A stretch of DNA of 20,000 nt from an uncultured virus (IMG/VR IMGVR_UViG_3300032250_000289) (lineage: Duplodnaviria > Heunggongvirae > Uroviricota > Caudoviricetes): the IMG/VR virus record IMGVR_UViG_3300032250_000289; one strand, 5' to 3'. This document shows, in pieces, positions 1,237-20,000 of the stretch. Within the stretch, counting starts at the first letter, position 1, and the number at the start of each line of letters is the position of its first letter. The notes under the pieces are model-generated. The model was not told the origin of the DNA. It ran no database searches and was given only the letters and a program-made list of their open reading frames with translations. The translations under genes were made by a program, and so were the position numbers.

Positions 1237-1238
1237 AA

Positions 1239-1397: not shown

Positions 1398-1409
1398 AAT
1401 TTATCCTAA

Positions 1410-4634: not shown

Positions 4635-4646
4635 TTTTCAGCTTTC

Positions 4647-5342: not shown

Positions 5343-5386
5343 ATTTTTCTCCTAAAAGAGTCCTAAAAACTTATGATCTATTGTTA

Positions 5387-5393
5387 TATACAC
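5387..5393 (-). promoter_or_regulatory. Candidate late-promoter motif GTGTATA upstream of the 5342 gene
   Basis: GTGTATATAAC on the minus strand 44 nt upstream of the ATG, directly after the capsid terminator U-tract; recurs at 8461, 10616 and 18084. Confidence 0.55.
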
Positions 5394-5428
5394 AAAAAAA
5401 GCCACCCCCAAGCAAATGAGGGCGGCTT
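5394..5428 (-). terminator. Rho-independent terminator after the major capsid gene
   Basis: Minus strand AAGCCGCCCTCA-tttgct-TGGGGGTGGC-TTTTTTT: GC-rich stem with G:U pairs followed by a U7 tract. Confidence 0.85.
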
Positions 5429-5459
5429 AATTGTTAACCTATACTATTAGTATTATAGA

Positions 5460-6467: not shown

Positions 6468-6498
6468 GTTTAATTCTCCTTATATTTTTCTATTTAGA

Positions 6499-6966
6499 TT
6501 AGGGAAGGTTGACTTCGACTTTGGCATAACCGTCTTCGTCCTTACTAGTAAGGAATCGACCAACCATTAGTGTGCCAGAACTGCCGGGGCTATCGGGACG
6601 AATGTTACCGGCTGTTACGTGACAAGCAAAGGCTGGGTCACCAGCGACGGGTGTGCCAGTGAGAAGGTTAGTTACAACATAACCCTTGCGGAGTACTGTA
6701 ACTTTGCCACCCTTCTGTACTTCATCCTTATGCTGATTAAGGTGAGTACGGGTTAAATCCTTATTTACTACGTCGTTAAGTAGGATACCTACTGGGCGAC
6801 TTGCTGCTGTTACAGCGGCATATGTAACAAGGTTAACACCCTGATCCATAGCTGCGCCAGAACCGGCAGTACCGTGAACAACGACACCACCGCGTGAAGC
6901 AGTGCCAGCATTGTAAAAGAAACTGATATCGGTCTGGAATTCGTATCTATCTGATTTTAGGGCCAT
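6499..6966 (-). CDS. Head decoration/capsid cement protein, 155 aa
   Basis: Between scaffold and capsid genes; Gly/Ala/Val-rich with PVGILLNDV, GGKVTVLRKGYVVTN and VGRFLTSKDEDGYAKVEVNL; AGGAG RBS. Confidence 0.7.
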   Translation of the reverse strand: MALKSDRYEFQTDISFFYNAGTASRGGVVVHGTAGSGAAMDQGVNLVTYAAVTAASRPVGILLNDVVNKDLTRTHLNQHKDEVQKGGKVTVLRKGYVVTNLLTGTPVAGDPAFACHVTAGNIRPDSPGSSGTLMVGRFLTSKDEDGYAKVEVNLP

Positions 6967-6988
6967 AATTTTTTCTCCTATTTTGAAA

Positions 6989-8437
6989 TCATTTACGTAA
7001 AACGTTTTCTGTTAGCCACTCTGCTACACTAGCTCTCGTAGCTTCCAATTCATCTACTACATCAGAAGCGTCTACGAGAGTGGCTTCTGTTGATTTTACA
7101 TCTTTGAAGAGTTCTTCTGATACTTCTTCAGTTTCAGAAGCAACTACTTCAGCCTTGGGATTTTTGCTTTCATTTTTTTCGTCTTTGACAAGACTTTCTT
7201 TCATTTCGTAATTACCGCCCTTATCCTTCATTTTAGCCATCTTCTTTTTATACATTGCTAAGACAGCTTCGAAAGCGGCATCATCTAGACTATCATAAAG
7301 AGAAAGTGATTCTTCTGCTTCTGCTTCATCAAAACCGCTCTTGACCATTTCAGTCTTGCGATTCATATCTTTTTCTTTCTTCTTCATCATCTTGAATTTA
7401 TCATTCATTTCAGCTAGTTCTTTATCCTTGAGTGATAAAGCTTCTTCTAGACTAGCAACTCTAGCTTCAAAAGCAGAGAGTGCTGATTCCTTTTCGGCAA
7501 TTGTATTTTCTAAATCTGAAAGCTTTGATGCATAATCAATAGTTTCAGCTTCTGTGATTACTGGTGTTTCAACTACTTCGGTTGAAGCTACATTTTCTGT
7601 TTGAGCATCAACTAGCTGCTCCTCTACCAAATTGGTTACTGAATCTGCCATATTAAAATCTCCTTTAGAAACATTTGAAATAGTATACTGTTCATTTATA
7701 GAGAAAGCTCTGCTAGAATCAAGAATAATACTTCGTGGATTAGCTGGTTTAGAAACTAAACCCTTACCAGAAAATGAAATATCTCTTAATGATCTACCAA
7801 TTTTATAGCCTTCGTATTCTCCCGTACCACCGTAAGCTCTTAAATGTTTTGTTAAGAATGATGATTCTTCATTTCTAGCTATAACCCTTGAGCCTCCAGA
7901 TTGATCTATAACTGCATAATCAAATCCGGCGAATAAGCATTCCATAGAAACGAACCATTGGCCTTGTTCAATTTCTGCAATGATCTTATTCATTCTTTCT
8001 CTATTGTCTGGATTTGTCCAACTATTATATAGAACGGCTTCTGTAATAATATCGAACTCGCTGGGCGCATCTGTTGAATCAGCAATTATTTTATTGCCTT
8101 CTCTATCAACAACATAGCTGCCAGTGATATGTCCAATGATATCGTTTTCATTGTGCATAAAATTGAATTGTTTATCTTCTGGTGTATTTCTAGCAGCCCA
8201 AGTCTGCTGATTATTAAATACATCGTCATTTTTATTCCAGCCAGTGGAAACTAACACAGATTTTAAATAATATAGATCAACTTGATTAGGATTGCTAGAA
8301 GCTCTAATTTTGTCAATAATATTTGGACGATTATACTGGCCATTGCTTAGTACTGCCTGTGAGCAATAAGCGATGGAACCCTGAGCCTTAATTTGCTCAG
8401 ATAATCCGTCTAATACTTCTTGATTATATATTTTCAT
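6989..8437 (-). CDS. Prohead maturation protease fused to a coiled-coil scaffold domain, 482 aa
   Basis: Motifs NKNDDVF, FNFMHNENDIIGHI (His), VSMECLF (Ser), FSGKGLVSKPANPRSII; acidic/Lys-rich coiled-coil C-terminal half; lies between portal and capsid. Confidence 0.8.
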   Translation of the reverse strand: MKIYNQEVLDGLSEQIKAQGSIAYCSQAVLSNGQYNRPNIIDKIRASSNPNQVDLYYLKSVLVSTGWNKNDDVFNNQQTWAARNTPEDKQFNFMHNENDIIGHITGSYVVDREGNKIIADSTDAPSEFDIITEAVLYNSWTNPDNRERMNKIIAEIEQGQWFVSMECLFAGFDYAVIDQSGGSRVIARNEESSFLTKHLRAYGGTGEYEGYKIGRSLRDISFSGKGLVSKPANPRSIILDSSRAFSINEQYTISNVSKGDFNMADSVTNLVEEQLVDAQTENVASTEVVETPVITEAETIDYASKLSDLENTIAEKESALSAFEARVASLEEALSLKDKELAEMNDKFKMMKKKEKDMNRKTEMVKSGFDEAEAEESLSLYDSLDDAAFEAVLAMYKKKMAKMKDKGGNYEMKESLVKDEKNESKNPKAEVVASETEEVSEELFKDVKSTEATLVDASDVVDELEATRASVAEWLTENVLRK

Positions 8438-8460
8438 TATGTGTTACCTTTCAAAATTAG

Positions 8461-8467
8461 TATACAC
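8461..8467 (-). promoter_or_regulatory. Candidate late-promoter motif GTGTATA upstream of the protease/scaffold gene
   Basis: GTGTATACTAA in the 46-bp intergenic gap, 23 nt upstream of ATG 8437. Confidence 0.55.
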
Positions 8468-8483
8468 TAAAACTATTAAAAGG

Positions 8484-10571
8484 TTAAACTAGGGCATTTT
8501 GCTCAATAAATAAACCAATAATATTCGTGCGATAAATATCAATGTTCATGGTTTCTATATTTATATTTCTATCACTTAGCAATGTTTTAAATTCTATTGG
8601 AGTGGTCTTTTTGGCCATTAAAATGTCATTTATGCTCTGAGCGTTCACAACTTCTAATAATGGTAAATTTGTTAAAACATCTATCTTTAGCTGTTCAAGA
8701 TCATTGATCTGAGCCTTAGTTAACTGTCTAAGATTTTTCTTATTGTTGCAGCTTAAAAAAGCATTATTAAGAACATCCGTTAATTCTGACCAAGCTGATT
8801 CCGTCCATACTAATAATTCAGCAACTCCCGGTTTAGATTTAGGATTAGCAATCCTTTGCTTGCGGGGTTTTGTGTCTGTTGATAGTGGGGGTCTACCATT
8901 CTGGTTAGGAGAGGGTGCTGTTTTTGGAGCGCCACCGCCGCCAAATGGAGTTTTTGGAGGTTGAGCTAACAGCAAATCTTTTGGAACAGTAGTTTTAATA
9001 CCAACATCGCTTGGTAGAACTTTACCAGTTTGTAGGGCGATCTTTTCCAAAGCTTCTTTTTGCTGTGGATTATGGTAGGGACTTGCTTTATTAGGTGTTG
9101 TATCAGATGTTCTAGCTTCCATTTCTCTCTGCAATCTAATCTTTTCGATCTGTGGAATTTCTTTAAATCTTTCAATAACAGTTTCTTGACTAATAATGTC
9201 TCTGTCGGCAAGTTGAATAAGTAGATTCTTCTCGGCGGCTTCATCAGATAGTGTCATCTGATCAAACTGAATATATGCTTTATAACGAAAGCCCATAGCC
9301 TGACGAACAATTTCTATTTCTTTTTCCCAGAACTTAATTAGTAAATCTCTACCGTACTGTAGTCTTTCAACTAAAGTTTTGAGCGATATATAATTATTTG
9401 TAAAACCACCGCCGCCGGTTGCCATACCAGTTAACGTTGGAGGAACGCCTAGTCCAGCATAAATACTATTTAGAACAGAGGTATATTTTTCTGAACCTAA
9501 GAACTTGTATACTTCACTGCTAGCTTCTTTGAATGATAATTCTGGACCCCAAACTAGTTCCATTGTGCCGCCACCAACGTTACTAGCTAGAATATCTCTT
9601 AATTTATTAATAGCCGCCCTATTTGGTAGAATCTTATGTTCTAAGCTACCAAGGGTCCATAGTCTAATATTTGAGATAGCACCGTCCAAAGCTGACATGT
9701 CTGCTAATCTCATTTTCTCTAACATGATAATATCATCAAGAATTGAATAAATCATGGGGTCTGCCCATTCCTGCCAATCGTCTTTCTTGTAATGAAAAAC
9801 GCTCATTCGGTTTGGATCAAGGGCGACTTGCTTTTCGCCATTCTGCAAGCTTTGTTTTATGCCGTTAGGTAGACTATTTAATACGTCTGTTGGTAGATCG
9901 CCATCTTCAAAACGGTCTAAGAATGTTTGAACGTTAATGGTATAGCTAGGAACGCCAGTAAAGATGGACATTTTGCCATCCTTCATCTTAACGTTTAGGG
10001 GATTAAAAAAGTTGTATCTCCAAGGAATAAGGTTTTCTTTAATATTTGGAACCTCTACCTTGATATCAGAAGATAGAGCCTTCATGTAACTTTCTAATTC
10101 TGGAGTAACATTAGCTTTACTTCTATAGATAATAACATTGCCTGTTTTGTAAAGATTGTTCAAAAATCTTTCTGATCGATCTTTACCATTAATGCTTTTG
10201 AACCATTGCTGATAGAATTTCTCAACGCTCTTATTAGGGTGAACTATACTAATACCTTGGCTACCAAAATCTCCCATTAGATCAATAATATTTCTTATAA
10301 TGCCAACCTTACTATACGCATCGATGCACATTTTCATGGCTCGTTTTTGCTGGGAAGGAACCGCCTCGTTGGGTCTAAAGGCGTAGTAATCCTGTTTTGT
10401 AAATCCCGGCCTTACAGAACGATTTGGTTCAATATCCAAGAATGTACGATAAGTGCTACCTTGACTTTTAGATAATCCAGTATAGCTTTCAATATTATCA
10501 GAAAACTGAGACATTGCGCTAGCTTTGCTGTCTTGATTATCGTCTGACCAAGTGACCATATCGTTATTCAT
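8484..10571 (-). CDS. Portal protein, 695 aa
   Basis: Immediately downstream of the large terminase; size; portal-like segments (IIRNIIDLMGDF, SIYAGLGVPPTLTG, IQFDQMTLSDE, LADRDIISQET) and a Pro-rich tail with GRP. Confidence 0.8.
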   Translation of the reverse strand: MNNDMVTWSDDNQDSKASAMSQFSDNIESYTGLSKSQGSTYRTFLDIEPNRSVRPGFTKQDYYAFRPNEAVPSQQKRAMKMCIDAYSKVGIIRNIIDLMGDFGSQGISIVHPNKSVEKFYQQWFKSINGKDRSERFLNNLYKTGNVIIYRSKANVTPELESYMKALSSDIKVEVPNIKENLIPWRYNFFNPLNVKMKDGKMSIFTGVPSYTINVQTFLDRFEDGDLPTDVLNSLPNGIKQSLQNGEKQVALDPNRMSVFHYKKDDWQEWADPMIYSILDDIIMLEKMRLADMSALDGAISNIRLWTLGSLEHKILPNRAAINKLRDILASNVGGGTMELVWGPELSFKEASSEVYKFLGSEKYTSVLNSIYAGLGVPPTLTGMATGGGGFTNNYISLKTLVERLQYGRDLLIKFWEKEIEIVRQAMGFRYKAYIQFDQMTLSDEAAEKNLLIQLADRDIISQETVIERFKEIPQIEKIRLQREMEARTSDTTPNKASPYHNPQQKEALEKIALQTGKVLPSDVGIKTTVPKDLLLAQPPKTPFGGGGAPKTAPSPNQNGRPPLSTDTKPRKQRIANPKSKPGVAELLVWTESAWSELTDVLNNAFLSCNNKKNLRQLTKAQINDLEQLKIDVLTNLPLLEVVNAQSINDILMAKKTTPIEFKTLLSDRNINIETMNIDIYRTNIIGLFIEQNALV

Positions 10572-10613
10572 GTGTTATTCTCTTAATTGGATTGTAATTG
10601 GAATGGCTATGTA

Positions 10614-12596
10614 TTAATACACATCTTTCATGTTTTCTGAAAACCAACTAGGTGCGTTGTATAGCTTTTCATTTTCGTATGATTTTGTTTGCTCTCTACC
10701 TGTAGCAAATCCTCCATAGAAATTGTATACTTCTTGCTCTGGAGTTCTTTGTAAAACTCTAGCAGCCATATTGGCCATTAATAGTGCGGAATATCGGTCC
10801 TTCCTCATTTTGCTTTTCTTGCCGGTGCCTATTATATATTCTGGAGTATCCCATCTATCCCGACCAGAATTTGTTTGTGTCATTTGTATCATAGCCAATT
10901 CGTCCTTTAATTCCTCAATATCTAAAACACATTCTTCTAAAGTGTCGAACATTCTATGTTTGATATCATCTTGGGATGTGGACAGGCCAATAGAGATGGC
11001 ATCAAAGTATGGAAATAATAATGCTTTATCTTCAAAGTCTTTTCTCATGCCATGATTAGCTTCTGATAACCATTCATATCGTGCAAACTGACACATTTCT
11101 ACGATATGTAAGCCTCTTTCGCCATCGGTATCTTTTTCTTTTTCTGGATCAATAGTTGGCCATATTGCCATTTCTCCAGATTTAATTTTGTCTTGGTCGT
11201 GTAAAGATTCTATAATGGCTATACCGCCACCCTGCGCGTCAATAGCAATATGAATACATGGGTATAAGATCATTAAATCTCTAATTTTTCTAGCACAATA
11301 AGAATAGAAATCACTCTCTGTTGAATAGCCCTTTTTTACTTTCTCTTTATGTTCTGATCTAGTGGTTGTCCAACAATGCACAATTCTTCTGTGATCTGGA
11401 TTTATTTCTAATATAACGATACTAAAATTATCTACTTCAGAAGCGGGGTCAACACCAAAGATATATCTCTTATTTGGATCACCCATTAGCGTTGCCTCAA
11501 ATTTAATTTCCTGCCCCTTGCTATCTTTGATAGAATTATTATTTGACACCACGCAGGACTCAATTAATGAACGCTTAAAGAACCCCTGAGAGTCTCTAGT
11601 AAAGCAGCAACCAAACTCCATCTGATAAATACCAGCATGTACTGTAGCTTTTGATCGTGCTACTTGATCAGCATCCATAAAACCTTTTGGTAATAGCTCA
11701 TATGGCATTCTTATAATAGAATACTGGGTCCAATCAAAATTATCTGGGGCATCCTCGCCGTTGAACACTTCTCTTAATTTGGTGGGATTGCCACCGCTTT
11801 TAATAATAGCTTTCCATTTCTTCCAGTATGTAGCGAAATGATTAAAGTCATAGTAAGCTGTTCCAGATAAAATAATCTGGTTGTCTTTTATTTCTATATC
11901 TTTATTTTCTTCTTCTATCTGTATTCCAAGTTCTAAAGCTTTTCTTTGTGCGGCTAAACGTTTTACATTTTCAACAGGGTCCGCACTAACAGCAGCGAAA
12001 CCAGCCACCACGTTTTCAAAAATATCTCTTGGTATGCTTGCAAATTCGTCACTAATAATATCGTTTGCGCGCTGACCTCTAATTTTTTGACCATCACCAA
12101 GTGGTAAGCAAGTAATAGTGCTTTCATTAATTCGTAAAACACACCTGTCAGTATCTCTTCTTGGGCCACTATCAGAGTCGCATAAATCTCTTAACATGGG
12201 AGAATTGCGCCATATGGTTTCCATGTATTCAAAAATAATTTTACTCTGTCTAAAGGCGGCACCAACTACAACAATCTTTCGTCGTGGAAGTATTAATGCT
12301 CTTAATACAGCGTAGAGAGATAGCGTGAATGATTTACCAAATCCTCGACTAGCAATGAGCATGGGAAATTTTCTAGTCCATATCTCTTGTAAGATTAAAG
12401 CCTGTGATGGTAGCAACTGTATACCAAGAATATGGCTACAAATAAAAGATAAGTATTCTGGACGGGTCATAAGCCAAGCTAACTTTAAATGAAAGTCATC
12501 TTCACTGGGCTTTAATATAGACATTGGGTTGAAGATATTGGCATCTATATTATCAAGACCTAGCCAAGCTTCATCTATCTTCTTAAGATTATTCAT
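10614..12596 (-). CDS. terL: Terminase large subunit, 660 aa
   Basis: Walker A ASRGFGKS, IRGQRAN, Walker B IISDEFA, motif III LSGTA, RNase-H-like nuclease IFGVDPA...D and KDRYSAL. Confidence 0.93.
   Translation of the reverse strand: MNNLKKIDEAWLGLDNIDANIFNPMSILKPSEDDFHLKLAWLMTRPEYLSFICSHILGIQLLPSQALILQEIWTRKFPMLIASRGFGKSFTLSLYAVLRALILPRRKIVVVGAAFRQSKIIFEYMETIWRNSPMLRDLCDSDSGPRRDTDRCVLRINESTITCLPLGDGQKIRGQRANDIISDEFASIPRDIFENVVAGFAAVSADPVENVKRLAAQRKALELGIQIEEENKDIEIKDNQIILSGTAYYDFNHFATYWKKWKAIIKSGGNPTKLREVFNGEDAPDNFDWTQYSIIRMPYELLPKGFMDADQVARSKATVHAGIYQMEFGCCFTRDSQGFFKRSLIESCVVSNNNSIKDSKGQEIKFEATLMGDPNKRYIFGVDPASEVDNFSIVILEINPDHRRIVHCWTTTRSEHKEKVKKGYSTESDFYSYCARKIRDLMILYPCIHIAIDAQGGGIAIIESLHDQDKIKSGEMAIWPTIDPEKEKDTDGERGLHIVEMCQFARYEWLSEANHGMRKDFEDKALLFPYFDAISIGLSTSQDDIKHRMFDTLEECVLDIEELKDELAMIQMTQTNSGRDRWDTPEYIIGTGKKSKMRKDRYSALLMANMAARVLQRTPEQEVYNFYGGFATGREQTKSYENEKLYNAPSWFSENMKDVY
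10616..10622 (-). promoter_or_regulatory. Variant late-promoter motif GTGTATT overlapping the terL stop, upstream of portal
   Basis: GTGTATTAATA, 44 nt upstream of ATG 10571; one mismatch to GTGTATA and constrained by coding sequence. Confidence 0.35.
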
Positions 12597-13227
12597 TCCT
12601 ATTCCAATCGGTCATAATAGCATCTGCAAACCCGTAATAAACAGCTTCCTCAGAATTTAAATACCAATCACCAGACTTTAATTTCCTAATTAAATATTGT
12701 TTGACTTGTTTTTCACTAGGCTTTTTGCCAAATTTATCTTTAAAGAATTGACCATCAACGCACCTTTTAGCATAAAGATCAAACATTACACTGGCGCACC
12801 TGCGCTCATAGTCAACAAAATTCTGTACGCTAAGATAGTCAGAACCAATATCCGTTGATCCATAATGACTCATAAAGTATGCGTTCTTAGTCATGTATCT
12901 ATAATCAGCAGCTTGTAGGATAATACTACTCATTGACTCGGCCTGACCGTAAACAATAACGCTTACATAAGATCGGCACATTGTTATAGCATCAAAAATA
13001 GCCATCCCATCAGACCATTCCCCACCAACACTGTGCATGTGTATAGTGATGGGGTTATTGTTCCGTAAATCCAATCCTCTTAAGTTCTTAATAAATGTAT
13101 TGGACATTCTATATTCAACGCCGGGATTCTGATTATCTTCAGTATGATAGTGGTTATGAAGAAATATTTCTCTGGTATTTATATTGGCACCATAGTCATG
13201 AAAATCTTTCAATAATTCTGGTTCCAT
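12589..13227 (-). CDS. clpP: ClpP-family serine protease (peptidase S14), about 212 aa
   Basis: HSVGGEWSDGMAIFDAI, GQAESMSSIILQAA (catalytic Ser), FMSH (His), GDWYLNSEEAVYYGFADAI (Asp). Start moved from the track's 13260 to ATG 13227, which has a GGAG RBS and abuts the upstream stop. Confidence 0.9.
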   Translation of the reverse strand: MEPELLKDFHDYGANINTREIFLHNHYHTEDNQNPGVEYRMSNTFIKNLRGLDLRNNNPITIHMHSVGGEWSDGMAIFDAITMCRSYVSVIVYGQAESMSSIILQAADYRYMTKNAYFMSHYGSTDIGSDYLSVQNFVDYERRCASVMFDLYAKRCVDGQFFKDKFGKKPSEKQVKQYLIRKLKSGDWYLNSEEAVYYGFADAIMTDWNRNE

Positions 13228-13228
13228 G

Positions 13229-13720
13229 TTAATCTCCATTTCCCGTGTTATACATTTCATTGATTCGTTTCAGTATACTGCTAACTGCTAAGAATGCGTC
13301 GTATTTACTACCACAGAATAGAACGTGTATGTTGTGTTGAATTTGAAATTCAAATAAACATTTTAACATATATTTACCAGTTATTTTGATATTATTTTTA
13401 TTTTCTGATGGGATGCGGGAGTCTTTGGGAAACTTTAACAAGTCCTCTAAAGAAAATTCTAGAACGATAAACTTGTGTGGAAACTTTGTCATGCGATCTA
13501 TTTCGTTCATGAAGGCGTGTTTTTTAACACCCAAGTTTCCAGCCAATTCTTCAACGCATCCCTTACGTTCAATGCATATCTTGTCCTCAAGACCCTGTAT
13601 GCTATAGTCTCCTGTATCCAATTTTGTTTCTATCATTCCAGCGCAAGTGTTGTACTCTTTAAAAAAGTATCCGTCTTGCTCTCTGGTGTCTTTAATAACT
13701 ATGAATGATTTATTCGCCAT
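13229..13720 (-). CDS. ERCC4 (XPF/Mus81-type) domain nuclease, 163 aa
   Basis: IKDTREQ...LDTGDYSI...CIERKG signature (GDx(n)ERK). Confidence 0.85.
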   Translation of the reverse strand: MANKSFIVIKDTREQDGYFFKEYNTCAGMIETKLDTGDYSIQGLEDKICIERKGCVEELAGNLGVKKHAFMNEIDRMTKFPHKFIVLEFSLEDLLKFPKDSRIPSENKNNIKITGKYMLKCLFEFQIQHNIHVLFCGSKYDAFLAVSSILKRINEMYNTGNGD

Positions 13721-13970
13721 TGATGATTTCTATAAACAATGCTTCGTAGTGTCGTTCTTGATCTTTAATAGACTTGTGACAGTTGTAACACAAAGTAATA
13801 CCGTTGGATGTTTCATACCTTAATGAGCTAGCAGAACTCCACGGTCTAATGTGGTGAACCTGTAGCCTAGACTTACTATCGCACTGAGGCATTCTACACT
13901 TAAATTTATCTCTTTTAAGTATGTCTGTTCTCCACTTTTTATATACGGGATCGCTGTAATTACGTTTCAT
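13710..13970 (-). CDS. HNH endonuclease, 86 aa
   Basis: WRTDILKRDKFKCRMPQC...LQVHHIRPW...NGITLCYNCH. Confidence 0.92.
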   Translation of the reverse strand: MKRNYSDPVYKKWRTDILKRDKFKCRMPQCDSKSRLQVHHIRPWSSASSLRYETSNGITLCYNCHKSIKDQERHYEALFIEIINGE

Positions 13971-14215
13971 AGTGAGTATATTTTATCTATTCTAGACTCT
14001 TTTCGTATTCTTCTACAAATAATTCTCATTTTGATTGATGGATCTTGATCTAGTAATATTTTAATTAAACCATTTATTACGTCTACGCATACCATATCTG
14101 GGTCTGTAGCTGTAATAAACACCGTTGGAAATGGTGAGTTATATCCTTTTAGATTTAAATGTCTTATATTAACGTAAATGTTAGAAATGTCCAACATTAC
14201 TCTGTAGTTTTTCAT
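13967..14215 (-). CDS. Hypothetical protein, 82 aa
   Basis: Co-oriented ORF overlapping both neighbours; no recognisable motif. Confidence 0.7.
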   Translation of the reverse strand: MKNYRVMLDISNIYVNIRHLNLKGYNSPFPTVFITATDPDMVCVDVINGLIKILLDQDPSIKMRIICRRIRKESRIDKIYSL

Positions 14216-15266
14216 TTATTCTGTCATTTAACATGAGTATTACTAGTTGCTCTAGGTCACATTTTGGTTTCCATCCTAATTTTTCTTGAGCTTTAGAGGA
14301 ATCACCACGAAGATAATTTACTTCTGCTGGCCTGTAAAACTCTGGGTCTATATAAATAAAGTTTAAAGGTTCATCGATATAGAAATATTTGAAAGCCTTG
14401 TCTATAAAATCTTTTATTGTGTGTGTTTTTCCAGTACATATAACATAGTCATCTGGTTCATGTTGCTGAAGCATAATGTGCATAGCCTCAACATAATCGC
14501 CAGCATATCCCCAATCTCTACAGGATTCAATATTGCCTAATCTAAGCTTTGGAAATTTAATTTCATTAGGGGTATGTAGAATATGTTCTGCTGAGAAAGT
14601 TAAATCATTAATATTTATCTTGTGTCGTTCAGTCCAATTAATAAAGTCAACTAGCCAGTTTGTAATTTTTTTGGTGACAAACTCATCGCCACGGCGCGGA
14701 CCTTCGTGATTAAATAAAATACCAGAACTAGCGTGTAGGCCATAAGCTTCCCGGTATAGTCGAACGGCAAAATGTGCGGCACATTTAGCTATCGCATATG
14801 GTGATTGGGGAAGAAATTTTGTCTCCTCATTTTGATACTTATTTCCATGACAATCTGTGTCACAAGAATCTCCAAACATCTCGCTAGATGATGCTTGATA
14901 GAATCTTACCCACTGCATATTGTTATCTAATATAGCTTGTAAAATATTGATACAACCCTTACCGGTTATATCCCAAGTTAGCCCCGGTTGCTTAAAAGAG
15001 GTTCCAACATGCGACTGTGCTGCTAGATTATAAATTTCATCTACTTCATCATAATCTTTAAGAATATTTGTGACACTACTAACATCTGTAATATCGCCCT
15101 CAATCAATTCAAATGATGGATTTCCCTTTAGATGTTTAATTCTCTGTGTGGTATCTACGCTGCATCGTCTAGCAACACCAACAACCCTATAATCCTTAGA
15201 TAGTAAAAGATCGGCTAGATGGCTACCATCTTGTCCTGTTATTCCGAATATAATTGCAGTCTTCAT
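14181..15266 (-). CDS. gmd: GDP-mannose 4,6-dehydratase
   Basis: GITGQDGSHLA, YNLAAQSHVGTSF, FYQASSSEMFG, PQSPYAIAK (YxxxK), GILFNHEGPRRG.EFVTKKI, LGN...RDWGYAGDYV, RPAEVNYLRGDSSKA. Confidence 0.95.
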   Translation of the reverse strand: MKTAIIFGITGQDGSHLADLLLSKDYRVVGVARRCSVDTTQRIKHLKGNPSFELIEGDITDVSSVTNILKDYDEVDEIYNLAAQSHVGTSFKQPGLTWDITGKGCINILQAILDNNMQWVRFYQASSSEMFGDSCDTDCHGNKYQNEETKFLPQSPYAIAKCAAHFAVRLYREAYGLHASSGILFNHEGPRRGDEFVTKKITNWLVDFINWTERHKININDLTFSAEHILHTPNEIKFPKLRLGNIESCRDWGYAGDYVEAMHIMLQQHEPDDYVICTGKTHTIKDFIDKAFKYFYIDEPLNFIYIDPEFYRPAEVNYLRGDSSKAQEKLGWKPKCDLEQLVILMLNDRINEKLQSNVGHF

Positions 15267-15898
15267 AAACCTTCCTCTTCCTTTATTTTAAAATAATCCT
15301 CTGTAAATTTTCCTTTTCTCATAGCTTCTAAATACCAAGGACTATGTTGTGCTGAGTACCAAATGTTGTGCGCCCTATTTTGATTTAATCTTTCACTTCC
15401 ATTAACTTCAAATTCCCAAGGATTTTCATTTTCTATTAAAGATGATTCTAAAAATTGCTTATTCCATATTGAAGCCTGCATGGATATAGAATACAAAGTA
15501 AATTGATTCATTTTATATAGATTGTCTTTAACACAAACGCTATTATATAAGCTACTATTTTCATGGATGCCAAATCTATTTATATTAAGACTTTCTACTA
15601 GATTAAAATAGGATTCAAACTCTTCTTTGAATATTGTTTTTCTAAAAAAGTAATCGTCTTGTAGCCAAAGGATGTAATCATCTTCTATAACTTGACAAGC
15701 TTTCTTTACACATTGAGAGTATGGAACGACGCCAGCAGTGATCCACTTAAAGTTATCAAACTTCTTTGTTGTGGTTTCAGTTAAGAAGTATTTCTCACAC
15801 TCTATATTATGATCCCAATACTTATTAAACAGTTCAACAAAGTCATTCCATAAGAAATGATACTTGTCGCACGTATTTATTAAAATAGAGAATTTCAT
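15263..15898 (-). CDS. Putative GT-A-fold glycosyltransferase, 211 aa
   Basis: FSILINTCDKY...W...F...FNKYW N-terminus, YILWLQDDYFF (DxD-like), SMQASIWNK, ENPWEFE; ATGA-coupled to gmd. Confidence 0.65.
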   Translation of the reverse strand: MKFSILINTCDKYHFLWNDFVELFNKYWDHNIECEKYFLTETTTKKFDNFKWITAGVVPYSQCVKKACQVIEDDYILWLQDDYFFRKTIFKEEFESYFNLVESLNINRFGIHENSSLYNSVCVKDNLYKMNQFTLYSISMQASIWNKQFLESSLIENENPWEFEVNGSERLNQNRAHNIWYSAQHSPWYLEAMRKGKFTEDYFKIKEEEGL

Positions 15899-16686
15899 TC
15901 TTTTACTGTGTCTGGTGTAAGGAATGGTTGATCAACAACCCCGTCCTCATATTTATGATAGGCTGAAAGTCTATCTTTTTCTTTCTCCATCGCCATTCTC
16001 ATCTTCTCCATCTCAATACCATACTTCTTCATAGTCTCTGGGTCTTGCATTAAGTGAGCCACCCACGACACGAAGCTTTGTTTACTATCTTCTAGTCGTT
16101 TAATACGCTGCTCTCTGGTTCCCTTCATCTCCCTTAACATTCCAGCTTTTTTACCTTGAAGCTCGCGGTAATCTTTGTTTAATGACTCCTGAGAGGCCCG
16201 TAGAGATGCTACCTGACGTTCCAAATTAAATATGTAGTCTTGGTCGCGTTGATCTTTATCAAGAGCCCTCTCGTCTTTAATCAACTTGTCAAAAGTGTTC
16301 ATGTCGATTATATTGTCTTTGCTAGACTTTAAGCACCTATTCATTAATAGTTCCAACTTAATAACGTCTACCACCTGTAATTCTTCTGTTGGAAATACAT
16401 CATCTTTAAACTGGGCAATAATACGACTCCAGTGATATTTAAATAGTTCCAACTCTTCTTCAGTAAACTGGCTTCCTAGTTCGTGATAATATGGGCGATC
16501 CTCTAATGAGAAAGCTGCCGCCTCTTCGCCCGATATCCCCACTTTAAATTTTCGCTTAACGAAGTTGTCAATCGACTCAACATCCCTATCTAATTTATGA
16601 GCGATATCTTCCACCGTCATACTGTCGATGAGCCGCCCTATGATTCGCTCTTCGTCTTTGCTAATTCTACCTTTTTTCATAACCAT
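15895..16686 (-). CDS. HTH plus coiled-coil protein, candidate terminase small subunit (start may be ATG 16680)
   Basis: N-terminal HTH-like MTVEDIAHKLDRDVESIDNFVKRK, long coiled coil, upstream of terL in the same operon; function inferred. Confidence 0.5.
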   Translation of the reverse strand: MVMKKGRISKDEERIIGRLIDSMTVEDIAHKLDRDVESIDNFVKRKFKVGISGEEAAAFSLEDRPYYHELGSQFTEEELELFKYHWSRIIAQFKDDVFPTEELQVVDVIKLELLMNRCLKSSKDNIIDMNTFDKLIKDERALDKDQRDQDYIFNLERQVASLRASQESLNKDYRELQGKKAGMLREMKGTREQRIKRLEDSKQSFVSWVAHLMQDPETMKKYGIEMEKMRMAMEKEKDRLSAYHKYEDGVVDQPFLTPDTVKE

Positions 16687-17167
16687 TATCCCCCAGTATA
16701 TTTTGTATAATAGCTATTATTTCTTCGCGTCGTTTTTTAGGAACATAAACGTCGTTTATAATCTTAAGATAATCTGACCTATAGTTTGAGGGCAGGGCGC
16801 TGTCTATAATTTTTTTAATATCGGACGCATCTATAAAGTCATCGCCGTTATTTTCATTATCGGGCACATAATCTTCATAAGATAATTGTTTGGGCGATAA
16901 GATTTTCTTTTTATCATCTTCATTCTTGTTATAGAAATTGTCGCGGACGAAATTCTTAAGACGATTACTTAGGTGAACAGAAAGAAAGTTTTCTAGTGGG
17001 CGATTGTGGTCGTATCTTTCAAGGGCATCTACGCATATAATAAACGCCTCTTGTTTTATATCATCAACTTCATAACCATTAAATGTATACTTGGGCGATA
17101 TCCTATCAACCACTGTGGATATGGAACTCATAACTTGTTGTAAACTCATGTTGGGAGGTATTTTCAT
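16667..17167 (-). CDS. Sigma70 region-2-like protein (phage sigma factor), 166 aa
   Basis: YEVDDIKQEAFIICVDALERYDHNRPLENFLSVHLSNRLKNFVRD resembles the region-2 pattern D..Qe..i....a...yd....f..y.....n.....R. Confidence 0.7.
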   Translation of the reverse strand: MKIPPNMSLQQVMSSISTVVDRISPKYTFNGYEVDDIKQEAFIICVDALERYDHNRPLENFLSVHLSNRLKNFVRDNFYNKNEDDKKKILSPKQLSYEDYVPDNENNGDDFIDASDIKKIIDSALPSNYRSDYLKIINDVYVPKKRREEIIAIIQNILGDNGYEKR

Positions 17168-17928
17168 GCTATCTCGCTAAGTAATGTATTCCATTTTTCT
17201 CCATCATAAAATTTTAAAGTTTTGGCGGTGGCGTCGTAATATAGGTTGCCTTCTTTTAAAGAGGGCGAGTCTGATGGGTTAAGTTGAAGATTGTTGGTTG
17301 ATAAGTTTTTAACAACTAACTTAGACGTTTTAAGAGATAGTTGGTTTTTGTATGACGAGATAGCATCTTTTATGTAATTTATAAACTCATCACTATTAGT
17401 ATCTAAACTCACAATATCATCTTTTACGCGAGCTAAGAAAGAATTCTCTTGTAAGCTGACCATGTTGGCGCAACAAGAGTCGTGAGAAGTTAATACTGAG
17501 TGGGGCAGAATAAGAGCTTCTTGATGAGAGTGGGGGAATGTTGAATAAGCAATAATATATTCATGGGGCTGGGGCATAAAAGATGAAGAGCCATTATGGC
17601 AGGCTGAAACCTGAGAAGAGTTGGGGCCATAACAAATGGGGATAGATCGTTCTAAGTAATATTGGTCATCTATCTTTTTAACGTTACCGACCCCTCTTTC
17701 ATGTTGGATAACTTTATCATTAGATATAAGTTCCAAAACGTAGAAGAAAGAGTTTTCTCCAAACATTCTACGGAAAGAGTGGCATTTATTTGTTGTGCCA
17801 CATTCTATACTGCGCGCTAATTCAGCGTTACATTCAGCGAGGGCTTTTGTGCCAGCTAGCCTATAGTTAGTTCCATCTTCATTAATTACTAATTCAAGTG
17901 CTGGAATCTTGCTCGTCTTTATCTTCAT
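17164..17928 (-). CDS. Hypothetical, probably virion-associated protein, 254 aa
   Basis: C-terminal EGNLYYDATAKTLKFYDGEKW is a motif common in phage fibre/structural proteins; ATGA-coupled to the next gene. Confidence 0.6.
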   Translation of the reverse strand: MKIKTSKIPALELVINEDGTNYRLAGTKALAECNAELARSIECGTTNKCHSFRRMFGENSFFYVLELISNDKVIQHERGVGNVKKIDDQYYLERSIPICYGPNSSQVSACHNGSSSFMPQPHEYIIAYSTFPHSHQEALILPHSVLTSHDSCCANMVSLQENSFLARVKDDIVSLDTNSDEFINYIKDAISSYKNQLSLKTSKLVVKNLSTNNLQLNPSDSPSLKEGNLYYDATAKTLKFYDGEKWNTLLSEIA

Positions 17929-18064
17929 CTTTGTCCTCTAGTGATCCTAGTAGTTCCGACATTGGAATGTCTGGTTTGTTAATTTCATTTTCAATTTCAG
18001 ACTTTAAAGAGGCCGTTGCTCTACAGTCTAATTGAGATTCAATTGTAATTGGTTTGTTGCTCAT
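17894..18064 (-). CDS. Small acidic protein, 56 aa (MSNKPITIESQLDCRATASLKSEIENEINKPDIPMSELLGSLEDKDEDKDEQDSST); first gene of the leftward operon
   Basis: ATG 18064 with AGGAG RBS at 18071-18075; TGA at 17894-17896; not in the ORF track. Confidence 0.75.
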   Translation of the reverse strand: MSNKPITIESQLDCRATASLKSEIENEINKPDIPMSELLGSLEDKDEDKDEQDSST

Positions 18065-18083
18065 AATTTTCTCCTGTACCTAT

Positions 18084-18090
18084 TATACAC
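18084..18090 (-). promoter_or_regulatory. Candidate late-promoter motif GTGTATA(ATA) at the head of the leftward operon
   Basis: GTGTATAATAG 19 nt upstream of ATG 18064; includes TATAAT but no TTGACA-like -35. Confidence 0.6.
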
Positions 18091-18240
18091 TGATAATAAC
18101 AATATTACCAAATAGGGGCTATGGGGGAGGATTGGGTAATACATAAGGATAATTTTTGGTTATTGTGAATGAACCACCCCCGAGTTTTTCCGCAGTTTGC
18201 CTAGCTTAACTAATGAAGATAAAACCCCCACCTTATCTAT

Positions 18241-18256
18241 ACTGCCTATCTTAACA
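18241..18256 (+). repeat. 16-bp direct repeat copy 1 (ACTGCCTATCTTAACA), preceded by AAACCCCC
   Basis: 15/16 identity to 19612-19627. Confidence 0.8.
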
Positions 18257-18263
18257 TTTTACG

Positions 18264-18341
18264 TAAGTCGTTATGTATCAAAGGTTTAGTGTCTCCACTC
18301 CCCGCCCAACTCGTCGTAAGTCTATATCTGACAACACTTTA
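18264..18341. repeat. Dyad-pair element copy 1: two TAA-N4-WT-N7-AA-N4-TTA boxes (18264-18288, 18317-18341) around a GC-rich 28-bp spacer
   Basis: TAAGTCGTTATGTATCAAAGGTTTA and TAAGTCTATATCTGACAACACTTTA; the first contains an exact IHF consensus WATCAANNNNTTR at 18276-18288. Confidence 0.75.
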
Positions 18342-18354
18342 CGTCGAGTGTAGA

Positions 18355-18370
18355 CGCATACGGTGTGCCA
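18355..18370 (-). promoter_or_regulatory. Sigma54 (RpoN) -24/-12-like box, leftward
   Basis: Minus strand TGGCACACCGTATGCG: TGGCAC with GG-N10-GC spacing. Confidence 0.55.
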
Positions 18371-18436
18371 TTCTGTAAAAAAATATTGTGATTCATTTGG
18401 CATGAAAATATATTTAGAAAAATCCAAAGATTTTGC

Positions 18437-18464
18437 TTGCAAGTGTCGATCTATACTGTATAAT
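18437..18464 (+). promoter_or_regulatory. Sigma70-type early promoter P1
   Basis: TTGCAA-N16-TATAAT with AT-rich upstream tract. Confidence 0.7.
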
Positions 18465-18501
18465 GAAAGCACAAGAGAACAACGAAGCAAAGGAAAAGAA
18501 A

Positions 18502-18705
18502 ATGAACAACAACGAAATCAAAATTGGCAGCAACGTAGTGTGGAACTTTGTGTTCGAAAGGGCTGAAGATTCTGGGGTAGTTGTAGAGATCAAGGGAGAT
18601 AAGGTATCTGTGGAATATAAGGTGATGGGCAAGGTATATAGGGATATGTTGAGCATGGACGAAATCATGCTGGAGTCGGAATATAATTCGCAATATTCTT
18701 TCTAA
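18502..18705 (+). CDS. Small early protein, 67 aa, possibly an SH3/KOW-like beta-barrel
   Basis: ATG after AAGGAAAAGAAA; MNNNEIKIGSNVVWNF...SGVVVEIKGDKVSVEY; start revised from the track's 18433. Confidence 0.8.
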   Translation: MNNNEIKIGSNVVWNFVFERAEDSGVVVEIKGDKVSVEYKVMGKVYRDMLSMDEIMLESEYNSQYSF

Positions 18706-18710
18706 GGTAC

Positions 18711-18739
18711 TTGACACGGGCCAACCGATACTATATAAT
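18711..18739 (+). promoter_or_regulatory. Sigma70 consensus promoter P2
   Basis: TTGACA-N17-TATAAT, exact consensus. Confidence 0.9.
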
Positions 18740-18773
18740 ACAGAGACAAGAGAAAAGGAAAAGGAATAGAAAA

Positions 18774-18932
18774 ATGAAAACGTTTTACTTCTACAGTTTT
18801 GATGGTCACAAGTTTATCGGTCAAGCTGATGCAGCCGATTGGATGGTAGCTCGCAAGATTGTTGCAGATGCAACAGGCTTTCCAGTAGATGACATGCTTC
18901 CCTATAGCTCAAAGAATATTTGGCAATTCTAA
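18774..18932 (+). CDS. Small early protein, 52 aa (MKTFYFYSFDGHKFIGQ...)
   Basis: AAGGA RBS, own promoter P2; start revised from the track's 18711. Confidence 0.8.
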   Translation: MKTFYFYSFDGHKFIGQADAADWMVARKIVADATGFPVDDMLPYSSKNIWQF

Positions 18933-18942
18933 GCTAATGGGC

Positions 18943-18971
18943 TTGACAGGATATAGCCGATACTATATAAT
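18943..18971 (+). promoter_or_regulatory. Sigma70 consensus promoter P3
   Basis: TTGACA-N17-TATAAT; shares CCGATACTATATAATACAG with P2. Confidence 0.9.
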
Positions 18972-19004
18972 ACAGGCACAAGGAAACAAACGATGGAAAA
19001 GAAA

Positions 19005-19148
19005 ATGATCTACTGGAATACCTCTAATCGTACAGGCGATAGGTATGAGGTATGGTATGATGGTAAGGTAGTCGCACGACACATTACCTTCAATGAATGT
19101 TGGGCGCTCGTTGAATCACTCCAAGCAAAAGAAGAGGTATGCGTATGA
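19005..19148 (+). CDS. Small early protein, 47 aa (MIYWNTSNRTGDRYEVWYDGKVVARHITFNECWALVESLQAKEEVCV; alternative ATG 18993)
   Basis: GGAAAAGAAAATG leader after P3; TGA overlaps the next ATG; not in the ORF track. Confidence 0.75.
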   Translation: MIYWNTSNRTGDRYEVWYDGKVVARHITFNECWALVESLQAKEEVCV

Positions 19149-19450
19149 CACACTACGAAGCTACTCAGATGGTACATGGTAAGACTAAGCGTAACACTCG
19201 TAAGGTAGGTAACAATACATATGCAGAGATACTGCCCGATGGTAGTGTAGCTATTATCCTACATGGTACGACTGTTGTACGTATTCATCCCGATAACAGT
19301 GCTACACTCAATACGGGTGGATGGTATAGCAGTACCACTAAGGATAGGATGAACAAGTATTCACCTGTACGTGTGTACCAGTGTAAGGGCGAATGGTATC
19401 TCAACAATGATGATAACACGCCATATGAGGATGGTATGACTGTACGGTAG
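19145..19450 (+). CDS. Uncharacterised phage early protein, about 101 aa
   Basis: GAGG RBS, ATGA coupling to the upstream ORF; motif LHGTTVV...LNTGGWYSSTTKDRMN recalled from a common phage hypothetical family. Confidence 0.8.
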   Translation: MTHYEATQMVHGKTKRNTRKVGNNTYAEILPDGSVAIILHGTTVVRIHPDNSATLNTGGWYSSTTKDRMNKYSPVRVYQCKGEWYLNNDDNTPYEDGMTVR

Positions 19451-19475
19451 TACAGTAGTGTACAACGACTCGACG

Positions 19476-19553
19476 TAAACCCTTGGTACGTAAGGACTTA
19501 GGGCGAATCGGGCGGGCCGCATTTGACGTAACTCCTTATCCCATAAGGGTTTA
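19476..19553. repeat. Dyad-pair element copy 2 (19476-19500, 19529-19553), inverted relative to copy 1
   Basis: TAAACCCTTGGTACGTAAGGACTTA and TAACTCCTTATCCCATAAGGGTTTA; spacer GGGCGGG is the complement of CCCGCCC in copy 1; flank ACTCGACGTAAA is the reverse complement of TTTACGTCGAGT. Confidence 0.8.
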
Positions 19554-19611
19554 CAGCACGTTTTTGTAGTACCCAAGCTAATCCGGTAGCCAAACCCCCC
19601 AGTTTACGCAA

Positions 19612-19627
19612 ACTACCTATCTTAACA
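19612..19627 (+). repeat. 16-bp direct repeat copy 2 (ACTACCTATCTTAACA), preceded by AAACCCCCC
   Basis: 15/16 identity to 18241-18256. Confidence 0.8.
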
Positions 19628-19630
19628 CAC

Positions 19631-19646
19631 AGCAAATATCGTGCCA
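19631..19646 (-). promoter_or_regulatory. Sigma54 (RpoN) -24/-12 consensus box, leftward
   Basis: Minus strand TGGCACGATATTTGCT, an exact match to TGGCACG-N4-TTGCW. Confidence 0.7.
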
Positions 19647-19710
19647 ATTGAATAGAAAATACTGAAAAGTTTTGTCAAAATCTCTTGACAATATTCTTGG
19701 AATTTTTCCC

Positions 19711-19738
19711 TTGCAAGTTCAAGAAGGGATGGTATAAT
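19711..19738 (+). promoter_or_regulatory. Sigma70-type promoter P4 (extended -10)
   Basis: TTGCAA-N16-TATAAT with TGnTATAAT. Confidence 0.75.
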
Positions 19739-19780: not shown

Positions 19781-19909
19781 ATGGAAATGATCAAAATCAC
19801 AAAAAATACAACTGCAATGGTTCGAAATGGCAAGGTAATCTACCTTGTGCAAAATGGAAAAATTACCCAAGATCCTCTGAAAGTTCGATATTTTCAAAGA
19901 ATGATTTAA
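19781..19909 (+). CDS. Small basic early protein, 42 aa (MEMIKITKNTTAMVRNGKVIYLVQNGKITQDPLKVRYFQRMI)
   Basis: AAGGATAAGAAAATG leader after P4; start revised from the track's 19685. Confidence 0.75.
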   Translation: MEMIKITKNTTAMVRNGKVIYLVQNGKITQDPLKVRYFQRMI

Positions 19910-19972: not shown

Positions 19973-20000
19973 ATGATGACTCTCGACAAGGTTATGGCAG
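19973..20000 (+). CDS. Start of another early ORF (MMTLDKVMA...), truncated by the window edge
   Basis: AAGGAAAAGAAAATG leader identical to that at 18490-18504; follows P5. Confidence 0.7.

Follow-up and report, generated by a model that had tools for sequence, protein, structure and literature searches.

What are four similar palindromes, arranged in two equally spaced pairs on either side of a handful of small genes, doing in a phage genome? The question is raised by a 20,000-nucleotide stretch of DNA (here, the window) from an uncultured virus of the Caudoviricetes (IMG/VR record IMGVR_UViG_3300032250_000289). An earlier note on this DNA had described four boxes with the skeleton TAA-N4-TT-N7-AA-N4-TTA. 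It proposed that they are phased bending sites of the type used by integration host factor (IHF), or else inverted recombination sites able to flip or exchange the block of about 1.1 kb between them. Our analysis suggests, at about even confidence, that the four boxes make up two neighboring copies of one polar boundary element, which lies between genes in the early-gene array of a clade of large uncultured phages. The boxes lie as follows:

18264-18288: box 1, TAAGTCGTTATGTATCAAAGGTTTA
18317-18341: box 2, TAAGTCTATATCTGACAACACTTTA, in which AT replaces TT
19476-19500: box 3, in the near-consensus right copy
19529-19553: box 4, in the near-consensus right copy

All four were recovered at these coordinates, and the offset is 53 bp in both pairs. 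The strict skeleton occurs three times in the 20-kb window against 0.21 expected, and three or more matches arose in none of 200 shuffles. When A or T is allowed at the inner positions there are five matches against 0.69 expected (five or more in 0 of 200 shuffles); four of these are the boxes, and the fifth, at 9372, is unrelated. The spacer word shared by both pairs, CCCGCCCRAYTCG, and the inner flanks TTTACGTCGAGT and ACTCGACGTAAA in opposite orientation are likewise present. A repeat search showed that the inner halves of the two pairs form a 49-nt inverted repeat with 73% complementarity (18301-18349 vs. 19468-19516). It also aligned boxes 1, 2, and 4 as direct repeats, which the earlier note had missed, because every box, and the element as a whole, is pseudo-palindromic.

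The element family and its arrays

The arrangement in the window belongs to a widespread family. Scanning IMG/VR viral contigs for a box-N28-box pattern yielded at least 233 loci (at least 234 matching stretches) on at least 104 contigs, many of which carry several matches 0.6 to 3 kb apart. After removal of duplicates and of copies with spacers below 40% G+C, which are AT-rich chance matches, 244 of 255 copies were kept. These nonredundant copies converge on a single polar consensus with position-specific half-sites, which in canonical orientation reads atTtGtCg / TAAGTcgTTg..a.aTAAGgACTTA / CGtCaAA..cGGCCggCCcgccTcGcCC / TAAGTCCTTa.g...cAAGGatTTA / cGtCaAgt. The preferred N4 words differ by half-site (GTCG; GTCC or GTGC; GTCC; ACCC). 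The element thus consists of two 25-bp dyads set 53 bp apart around a GC-rich core and extended to (T)TGACG...CGTCA(A), with a length of 78 bp, or about 95 bp with flanks. Spacing is strict: 262 of 280 neighboring box pairs are offset by exactly 53 bp and none by 51, 52, 54, or 55 bp, which bears out the same-face spacing proposed earlier. The skeleton is kept while the N positions vary, as had been noted for the window, and this holds over about 100 phage contigs.

Since the search pattern had itself fixed the skeleton, we rechecked it from the promoter side, scoring with the skeleton columns masked. An element lies upstream of 62 of 104 promoters of the type found in this clade. Fourteen of these 62 copies miss the strict pattern, yet the skeleton holds in them, and over all 62 copies there are few departures at any position; the largest are C for T at position 1 (6/62) and T for A at position 71 (15/62). 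The element is a very strictly built noncoding motif, with an invariant length and about twenty invariant positions, in phages whose terminases are only about 55% identical. No description of it was found in Rfam or in the literature by word-based searches of open-access text, which leave many journals uncovered, and the papers listed by searches with half-site strings were all unrelated.

Five related IMG/VR records were examined whole (G001 to G005), three of them rated 95 to 100% complete and two of these 100%. Every one of them carries an array of the element, counted here at two mismatches or fewer:

G001, 11-9076 of 150 kb: array of 12 copies
G002, 48.3-62.2 kb: array of 13 copies
G003, 124.4-130.9 kb: array of 6 copies
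G004, 20.0-39.5 kb of 233 kb: array of 16 copies
G005, 18.9-33.5 kb: array of 14 copies

The reversed pattern was found zero times. All copies of a record fall within one early region of small genes, 7 to 20 kb long, and across the five records the element occurs only there, in the part of the genome believed to carry the genes for host takeover. In four of the five records there is a terminase 54 to 55% identical to that of the window, a few kilobases from the array as in the window itself, and the same four share, in synteny, an open reading frame (ORF) of 263 aa. Judging from the arrays of 6 to 16 copies in related genomes, the window contains just the first two members of an array that runs past position 20000. 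The pairs were first seen as bracketing a special four-gene block; in the relatives such pairs are simply consecutive members of a longer series. The remaining record, G003 (131 kb, 95% complete; loci L004 to L007), has its six elements at the end of the sequence and gave no match to the window's terminase or 263-aa protein. The element may extend beyond one terminase lineage, or the two genes may lie off this contig.

The element also turned up in metagenome-assembled genomes (MAGs), where true members sit on small contigs only and the taxonomic labels are inconsistent (Planktophila, Planctomycetaceae, a gammaproteobacterium, Rhodobacteraceae, Nitrospinaceae, and an unnamed bacterium). Our scan of genome contigs did not find it in any host chromosome. 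The element-bearing contigs look like phage DNA caught in bins, and indicate no host.

Polarity, promoters, and duplex recognition

Each copy of the element is placed immediately past a stop codon or a tRNA array. What comes next is either a strong sigma-70-type promoter or, as in the window, a sigma-54-type motif on the other strand at a fixed distance of 29 bp and then sigma-70-type promoters. At five loci that we inspected, one particular end of the element lies no more than a few bases from where a gene stops, and the stop codon itself is often supplied by the element, as its TAA or as the TGA of the TTGACG flank. At locus L004 the element begins one base past a tRNA array. An open-frame test of upstream ORFs is to be read with the knowledge that the element itself carries stops at -5 and 0 and that antisense frames are open too. 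Purine skew gives a common reading direction for the two flanks of 103 of 136 copies, the reverse of that direction for 12, and a mixed picture for 21. Around these 136 elements there are 347 sigma-70-type sites (at least 10/12 matches) on the gene strand against 46 on the other strand, and within the first 60 nt after the elements the counts are 78 and 1.

The distance to the promoter is structured as well. Considering the best site of at least 9/12 within 110 nt, which 90 of the 136 elements possess, the -35 hexamer starts at offsets of 19 to 21 (23 promoters), 27 to 33 (40), 40 to 43 (11), or elsewhere (16), so that the classes near 20, 30, and 41 bp are steps of about one helical turn. Promoters of the clade share an upstream A/T tract (AAAGATTTTTTCAAGA-like) and a CCGATAAT word in the spacer, and those of the window have the same features (TTGACA...CCGATACTA-TATAAT). 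The spacer word, CCGATA(A/C)T, is conserved in early promoters of the clade and has no obvious sigma-70 role. As a separate observation, tRNA gene arrays inside the early arrays end one to a few bases from an element at several loci (L004, 5088-6078; L036 and L078, about 3080-3300; L008; L019), and two phages that are almost identical have different tRNA genes upstream of one and the same element.

In the window, the two copies of the element are:

18258..18349, plus strand: left copy (E_L), with box 1, a 28-bp spacer (18289-18316), box 2, and palindromic flanks
19468..19559, plus strand: right copy (E_R), with box 3, a spacer (19501-19528), and box 4

The right copy is a near-consensus family member (profile scores of 105.0 and 89.7 in the two orientations), and was aligned with 118 others in an alignment that we call A2. 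It begins 25 nt past the stop codon of the ORF at 19139-19450, and its canonical orientation on the minus strand corresponds to the direction of the early genes on the plus strand. The left copy is a degenerate or hybrid one at the edge of the array, with no codirectional gene upstream. Its first box resembles an inverted first box, and it scores 53.3 in one orientation and 52.3 in the other, so that its direction is not fixed by sequence, the element being pseudo-palindromic. The array-edge copy in G001 is likewise the weakest of that record (56.2). Since the downstream modules, including a sigma-54-type motif described below, stand on the same side of both window copies, the two share one functional orientation.

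Taken together, the conserved skeleton, the varied N positions, the strict 53-bp spacing, and the absence of compensatory pairing (see below) point to duplex DNA recognized by a protein on one helical face, and on this point we agree with the earlier note, which had favored protein recognition over recent duplication. We consider it about an even bet that the element is a protein-bound boundary, or insulator, of the early-gene array, with a role like that of the promoter-early stem-loop (PeSL) cassettes of T4-like phages and a different build. Under this interpretation, the element would act as duplex DNA and not as folded RNA. A putative dimeric or tetrameric protein, encoded by the host or the phage, would contact both dyads, which are separated by five turns and face the same side of the helix. 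The bound element would mark the end of one early unit and insulate it from the promoter of the next, and might also bring about the shutoff of early transcription. At most, a weak polar terminator would be added by the GC core and the short T-run behind it. Ordinary homologous recombination between copies would shuffle the units, since element and promoter together make up a repeated patch of about 200 bp.

Alternatively, the element could work at the level of RNA, its hairpins lying at the 3' end of each early unit, where they would terminate transcription, be cut by RNase III, or protect the mRNA 3' end; the early processing sites of T7 offer a comparison. We regard this as rather unlikely, although its position directly after stop codons and tRNA arrays would suit it well. 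The plus strand of the right copy folds as one long hairpin (-49 kcal/mol, z = -1.9), and positions 17 to 62 of the element fold somewhat better than shuffles (-14.0 vs. -10.1 kcal/mol). Of the 244 copies, 107 have a run of at least three T's past the GC core when read in the gene direction, and only 47 when read the other way. PeSL stem-loops are called effective terminators in a passage of the paper that describes them (PMC2839356).

The pairing test, however, gave compensatory support to neither fold. Over 120 aligned copies (A2), a three-hairpin model had 70.8% of cells paired against 72.1% in shuffles, with nearly every shuffle as good, and a long-hairpin model had 69.1% against 69.9%, with 481 of 500 shuffles as good. 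Among the 244 copies the two halves of each box resemble one another less than would be expected (z = -5.4 and -5.2), as if complementarity were avoided; the inner half-sites (z = 4.5) and three pairs of the GC core (z of about 4) do lean toward pairing. Folding of the spacer is no better than that of its shuffles (-7.5 vs. -7.8 kcal/mol). No U-tract follows the element: a run of four or more T's occurs after the GC core in only 26 of 244 copies, and the window contains zero terminator-like sites. Searches with Rfam 15 gave no match at the window elements (E up to 5), and at five loci with about 30 elements (E up to 0.1) they gave only tRNAs and two subthreshold chance matches; no tRNA or known RNA was found at the boxes. 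Such strict invariance of length is unusual for hairpins, the left copy has no codirectional gene upstream, and the distance to the promoter is quantized in helical turns. A weak polar terminator, formed by the GC core and the short T-run, is possible at most. The invariant skeleton, the invariant length, and the turn-wise promoter spacing go beyond such a terminator and point to a protein on duplex DNA.

A second alternative starts from the opposite strand. Sigma-54 promoters have the consensus TGGCAC-N5-TTGC, with GG and GC one helical turn apart, and the reverse complement of a near-perfect match, GCAAA-N5-GTGCCA, follows about a fifth of the sampled elements. Opposite the early genes this motif occurs 35 times in about 200 kb, where we estimate about 0.8 per strand to be expected. 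Around the 136 elements, 26 of the 35 matches lie between +24 and +71, counted from where the element ends, and 16 of the 26 are at exactly +28 or +29. The predicted start of transcription would fall at the edge of the element. All 10 of 10 elements examined in G005 (L371) have the motif, and the 20-kb window contains only two matches, each adjoining an element:

18356..18370, minus strand: left sigma-54-type motif, TGGCACACCGTATGC, its first base 29 nt past the end of the left copy
19632..19646, minus strand: right sigma-54-type motif, TGGCACGATATTTGC, 93 nt past the end of the right copy and pointing leftward

The left motif points leftward into the left copy and, beyond it, the minus-strand operon beginning at 18064. 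For some members of the clade, the window among them, the element could make up the initial 78 nt transcribed from a promoter directed against the early genes, and serve as its operator, leader, or enhancer. It might control that transcript or bring it to an end, or it might itself be a small antisense RNA aiding early shutoff. G-U pairs in box B fit such a transcript, since standard plus G-U pairing reaches 77% and 69% at two positions where Watson-Crick pairing alone reaches 29% and 32%.

Despite this positional association, we judge the antisense interpretation unlikely. The motif accompanies only about a fifth of the sampled elements, and most elements have a sigma-70-type promoter directly after them. 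No covariation is seen. Nor is a convincing activator encoded: a search for PF00158 in the five records returned just two weak AAA+ matches (E of about 0.005), a level at which the profile is unspecific because control matches appear in all 14 genomes. A word-based literature search on sigma-54 in phage genomes listed nothing relevant by title or abstract. If the motifs are real promoters, their facing the early genes would be an unusual use by phages of a host alternative sigma factor.

Two further features accompany the motif. An inverted repeat, GTGCCA(AA)...TTTGGCATGA(A/G)AA, lies at 18365-18405 after the left motif and before the TTGCAA-type promoter, and is kept in position across several phages (L024, L027). 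In addition, a 36-nt direct repeat, termed X, stands on opposite sides of the two window elements, its right copy falling between the element and the sigma-54-type motif:

18221..18256, plus strand: X_L, AAAACCCCC...CCTATCTTAACA, ending 7 nt before box 1; the two X copies are 78% identical
19592..19627, plus strand: X_R, the second copy, starting 38 nt past box 4

X consists of a C-run followed by CCTATCTTAACA, which occurs twice in the window against 0.13 expected; a related stretch is seen at 18175-18185. Comparable G-run repeats (CTATTGGGGGGGTAGCCAATACCATAG-like) flank the first element of G005 on both sides (L371, about 9800-10330).

Shuffling of early units and what could cause it

The earlier note had proposed exchange or inversion of the block between the pairs, and had suggested comparing gene content between elements across relatives. 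We grouped the ORFs of four arrays into families and wrote each array as a string of genes and elements. The arrays differ mostly by the reordering of whole inter-element units; for example, a unit of families F16 and F02 precedes a unit of F15 in G001, and follows it in G004. An element lies between the genes in 45 of 60 broken adjacencies and in 18 of 46 conserved ones (Fisher's p 3e-4), counts that are not independent because genome pairs were counted in both directions.

Homology breaks at the elements, too. From 325 copies with 290-nt flanks we selected pairs sharing at least 90% identity over 60 nt on one flank. On the far side of the element the homology is lost in 38 pairs and persists in 11, whereas for equally wide control gaps 140 to 215 nt away the numbers of breaks and continuations are 9 and 14, 9 and 15, and 12 and 12. 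Loci L036 and L078 illustrate the pattern: they are 96 to 99% identical through promoter, box, and spacer, diverge inside the element, and then continue into different tRNA genes. One-sided similarity, with at least 90% identity on one flank and unrelated sequence on the opposite one, is seen for 42 pairs of copies; in 32 of them the switch point lies inside the element. Switch points fall in the spacer (17), box 2 (9), box 1 (6), and the flanks (10). They do not allow a crossover point to be named, since the pairs were preselected for a junction near the element and invariant columns cluster the estimates. Exchange of blocks therefore stands in a weaker form, as permutation of whole units with homology breaks at the elements, and the comparison of gene content supports it; for inversion neither line of evidence speaks. 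Homologous recombination between the patches of element and promoter, each of about 200 bp, would be an economical explanation of the shuffling. One shared segment departs from this pattern: 316 bp with 90 to 92% identity (L008 and L017, 2021-2333, vs. L018 and L047) recur in otherwise different arrays and end 500 to 980 nt from any element. It looks like a single gene that has moved independently of the elements.

The same data could be read as site-specific recombination. The attC sites of integrons consist of four inverted half-sites around a variable center and follow the stop codon of a cassette. Each box could likewise be a core site of two inverted arms around a 7-bp center, at which a putative recombinase would excise and insert units, and the likeness extends to the location after stop codons in a one-way array of small ORFs. 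Units do permute whole, and 32 of the 42 one-sided pairs do switch inside the element. Nevertheless, we hold sites of this kind to be highly unlikely. Tyrosine recombinases (PF00589) gave zero matches in the five records, with the control matching in 14 of 14 genomes, and serine recombinases (PF00239) were not found in the five records either, three of which are 95 to 100% complete; a recombinase of one of these types was what the earlier note had suggested looking for. The switch points are spread and do not mark one crossover point, in pairs that were preselected for a nearby junction. The fixed length is unlike attC, and a folded form lacks pairing support. These observations are equally well explained by homologous recombination between repeats of about 200 bp, as shown for PeSLs (PMC2839356). 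We assign a similarly small chance to the broader proposal that the array is a phage-borne cassette system, in which the double dyads are sites of a putative recombinase, or of a recombination-directing protein, that reorders self-expressing early units. Were it true, it would be an integron-like device built from different parts, dedicated to swapping host-takeover genes in a lineage of large phages.

Still less probable, in our estimation, is a selfish miniature inverted-repeat element (MITE, REP, or Correia-like) that has spread without serving the phages. It is true that the element is palindromic, multicopy, and intergenic, and that some genomes carry nearly identical copies (G005, L042). 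But variation is confined to the N positions, while skeleton and length are invariant over deep divergence, and copies are restricted to one region and one orientation. The flanks are inverted (TTGACG...CGTCAA), that is, part of the palindrome and not direct target duplications, and among genome contigs the element was found only on the small, inconsistently labeled MAG contigs described above, not in host chromosomes.

The least credible explanation is the flipping of the four-gene block between two inverted pairs of phased IHF-type bending sites: the 49-nt inverted match and an exact IHF 13-mer in box 1 (WATCAANNNNTTR, 18276-18288, as the earlier note had pointed out) speak for it, together with the short core CAANNNNTTR in about a third of half-sites (352 of 976 in the 244 elements), whereas the full consensus is present in just 29 of the 976, so that the 13-mer is not a family trait, the downstream modules make the two window copies functionally direct, elements are almost uniformly oriented within the four related arrays, a flip would set four promoter-driven genes against the rest of the array, and the five related records yielded no recombinase. 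The original interpretation was thus partly right: it was correct on protein-type dyads and on block exchange, and mistaken on inversion, on IHF, and on the pair being special.

Returning to the protein-bound boundary, an argument can be made against it on several grounds. The family profile was built from copies picked by the skeleton pattern itself. Promoters of the clade are so close to consensus that they need no activator. In the window, the promoters begin 95 and 157 nt after the elements and not 20 to 41 nt. Promoter phasing could arise from A/T-tract modules of about 10 bp and not from contact with a bound protein. The inner half-sites and GC core show modest positive covariation (z of 2 to 5), and the excess of T-runs in the gene direction fits a weak terminator. 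The adjacency and homology-break counts come from overlapping, nonindependent genome pairs. Ends of high-scoring segment pairs (at least 90% identity) are not enriched at elements: among 34 partly redundant endpoints, 2 lie in an element and 4 within 150 nt, where chance would give about 29%.

The binding partner is a further point of this kind, since no binding protein was identified among the candidates (HU/IHF, a Gp96-like protein, and the 263-aa protein). No HU or IHF gene was found in the five records, and a host IHF could still be the binder. The Gp96-like protein (Kyano_Gp96/phrog_554; 100 aa; 19139-19450, plus strand, in the window) belongs to the only ORF family that every one of the five arrays contains, and the unit in which it sits differs from array to array; its predicted fold is confident (pLDDT 86) and has no PDB match at E < 0.1. 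The 263-aa protein (15895-16686, minus strand) is predicted to combine an N-terminal three-helix bundle of helix-turn-helix-like form with long coiled coils. It has weak fold matches only, including the HK97 small terminase (probability 0.75 to 0.87, E of about 1), and is probably, judging from these models, a small terminase, though encoded several genes away from the large subunit. For neither protein do these fold results count as evidence about binding.

The genomic setting and comparison with known systems

The window divides into two blocks of opposite direction that meet next to the left copy. From 1 to 18064, genes lie on the minus strand and include the large terminase, a ClpP-type protease, HNH and ERCC4 nucleases, a GDP-mannose dehydratase, and a small sigma-like protein. 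From 18502 onward there are small plus-strand ORFs, each behind a sigma-70-type promoter, and three of these promoters are perfect (12/12). The features in this part of the window are:

18082..18111, minus strand: divergent sigma-70-type promoter of the minus-strand block, TTGGTA-18-TATAAT
18437..18464, plus strand: sigma-70-type promoter of the first early unit, TTGCAA-16-TATAAT, 95 nt past the left copy
18502..19450, plus strand: first early unit, with small ORFs at 18502-18705, 18774-18932, 18993-19148, and 19139-19450
18711-18739 and 18943-18971, plus strand: perfect 12/12 sigma-70-type promoters before the second and third ORFs
19711..19738, plus strand: sigma-70-type promoter of the next unit (ORF 19781-19909), after the right copy, TTGCAA-16-TATAAT with TG before the second hexamer

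The divergent promoter leads into a 56-aa ORF, a 254-aa ORF, the sigma-like ORF, and the conserved 263-aa ORF, with the terminase further on. Close relatives of the 254-aa ORF were found neither in IMG/VR nor among the five related records. The stretch that separates the terminase from the sigma-like gene (12589-15266, minus strand) encodes the ClpP-type protease, the ERCC4-type nuclease, an HNH endonuclease, and the GDP-mannose 4,6-dehydratase, an unusual mix next to a packaging gene. Cultured phages offer little guidance: among 50,697 cultured phage records, no DNA match was found for 18100-19700, and the terminase is at best 25 to 28% identical to its cultured counterparts (25% for Microcystis phage MaeS and 28% for Bacillus phages), with no T4-type match among the best ones.

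How, then, does the element compare with systems that are already known? The resemblance to integron attC sites lies in the half-site layout, the position after stop codons, the one-way array of small ORFs beside a divergent block, and the reassorting units. It ends with the lack of an integrase match, the fixed length, the different core sequence, the missing support for a folded strand, and the presence of a promoter in each unit. Like IHF-binding, REP, BIME, and Correia repeats, the element is an extragenic palindrome that follows genes, and the IHF core recurs in its half-sites (352/976). Unlike them, it is confined to one phage region and is not dispersed in host chromosomes, and the full IHF consensus is rare (29/976).

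A different kind of parallel is provided by the binding arrays of phi29 p4 and SPO1 TF1, the latter an HU-type protein. There, A/T-patterned inverted repeats recur ahead of early promoters, in helical phase with them, and are recognized largely through the shape of the DNA. Our element shares with them the A/T-patterned inverted repeats and the helical phasing with early promoters. It differs in that no homologue of such a protein was found, HU-type proteins being absent from the five records, and in that the sequences are unrelated. Should a factor of this kind exist for the present clade, the putative DNA-binding protein could control the whole early program at 6 to 16 sites at once.

The closest comparison is with the PeSL cassettes. 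Passages of the papers that describe them portray a stem-loop together with a sigma-70-like promoter, located beside indels (Arbiol et al. 2010, PMC2839356; Comeau et al. 2014, PMC4122927). The same passages report that the cassettes form mini-circles, with homologous recombination shown as the mechanism (PMC4122927, PMC2839356). Both systems are composite intergenic cassettes in regions where the early genes are small and variable; in each, a palindrome is set shortly ahead of a strong, sigma-70-like promoter that has an A/T-rich stretch; and both are repeated many times, at sites that coincide with insertions, deletions, and reordering between related phages. Their builds are nonetheless distinct. 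The PeSL, as portrayed there, is a short hairpin terminator with a G-run and a C-run, whereas the element described here is a fixed 78-bp double dyad with an invariant A/T skeleton, without pairing support and without a U-tract, that is kept across phages whose terminases are only about 55% identical. By their terminases (25 to 28% at best to cultured phages) these phages are not T4-like, and some members of the clade have a sigma-54-type motif immediately beside the element, on the opposite strand. For uncultured phage genomes of 130 to 230 kb, the element offers a simple sequence tag for the early region and for the boundaries of its units. More generally, the notion drawn from PeSLs that modular shuffling is driven by regulatory cassettes would now reach past the T4-like phages and take in an element of quite another kind.

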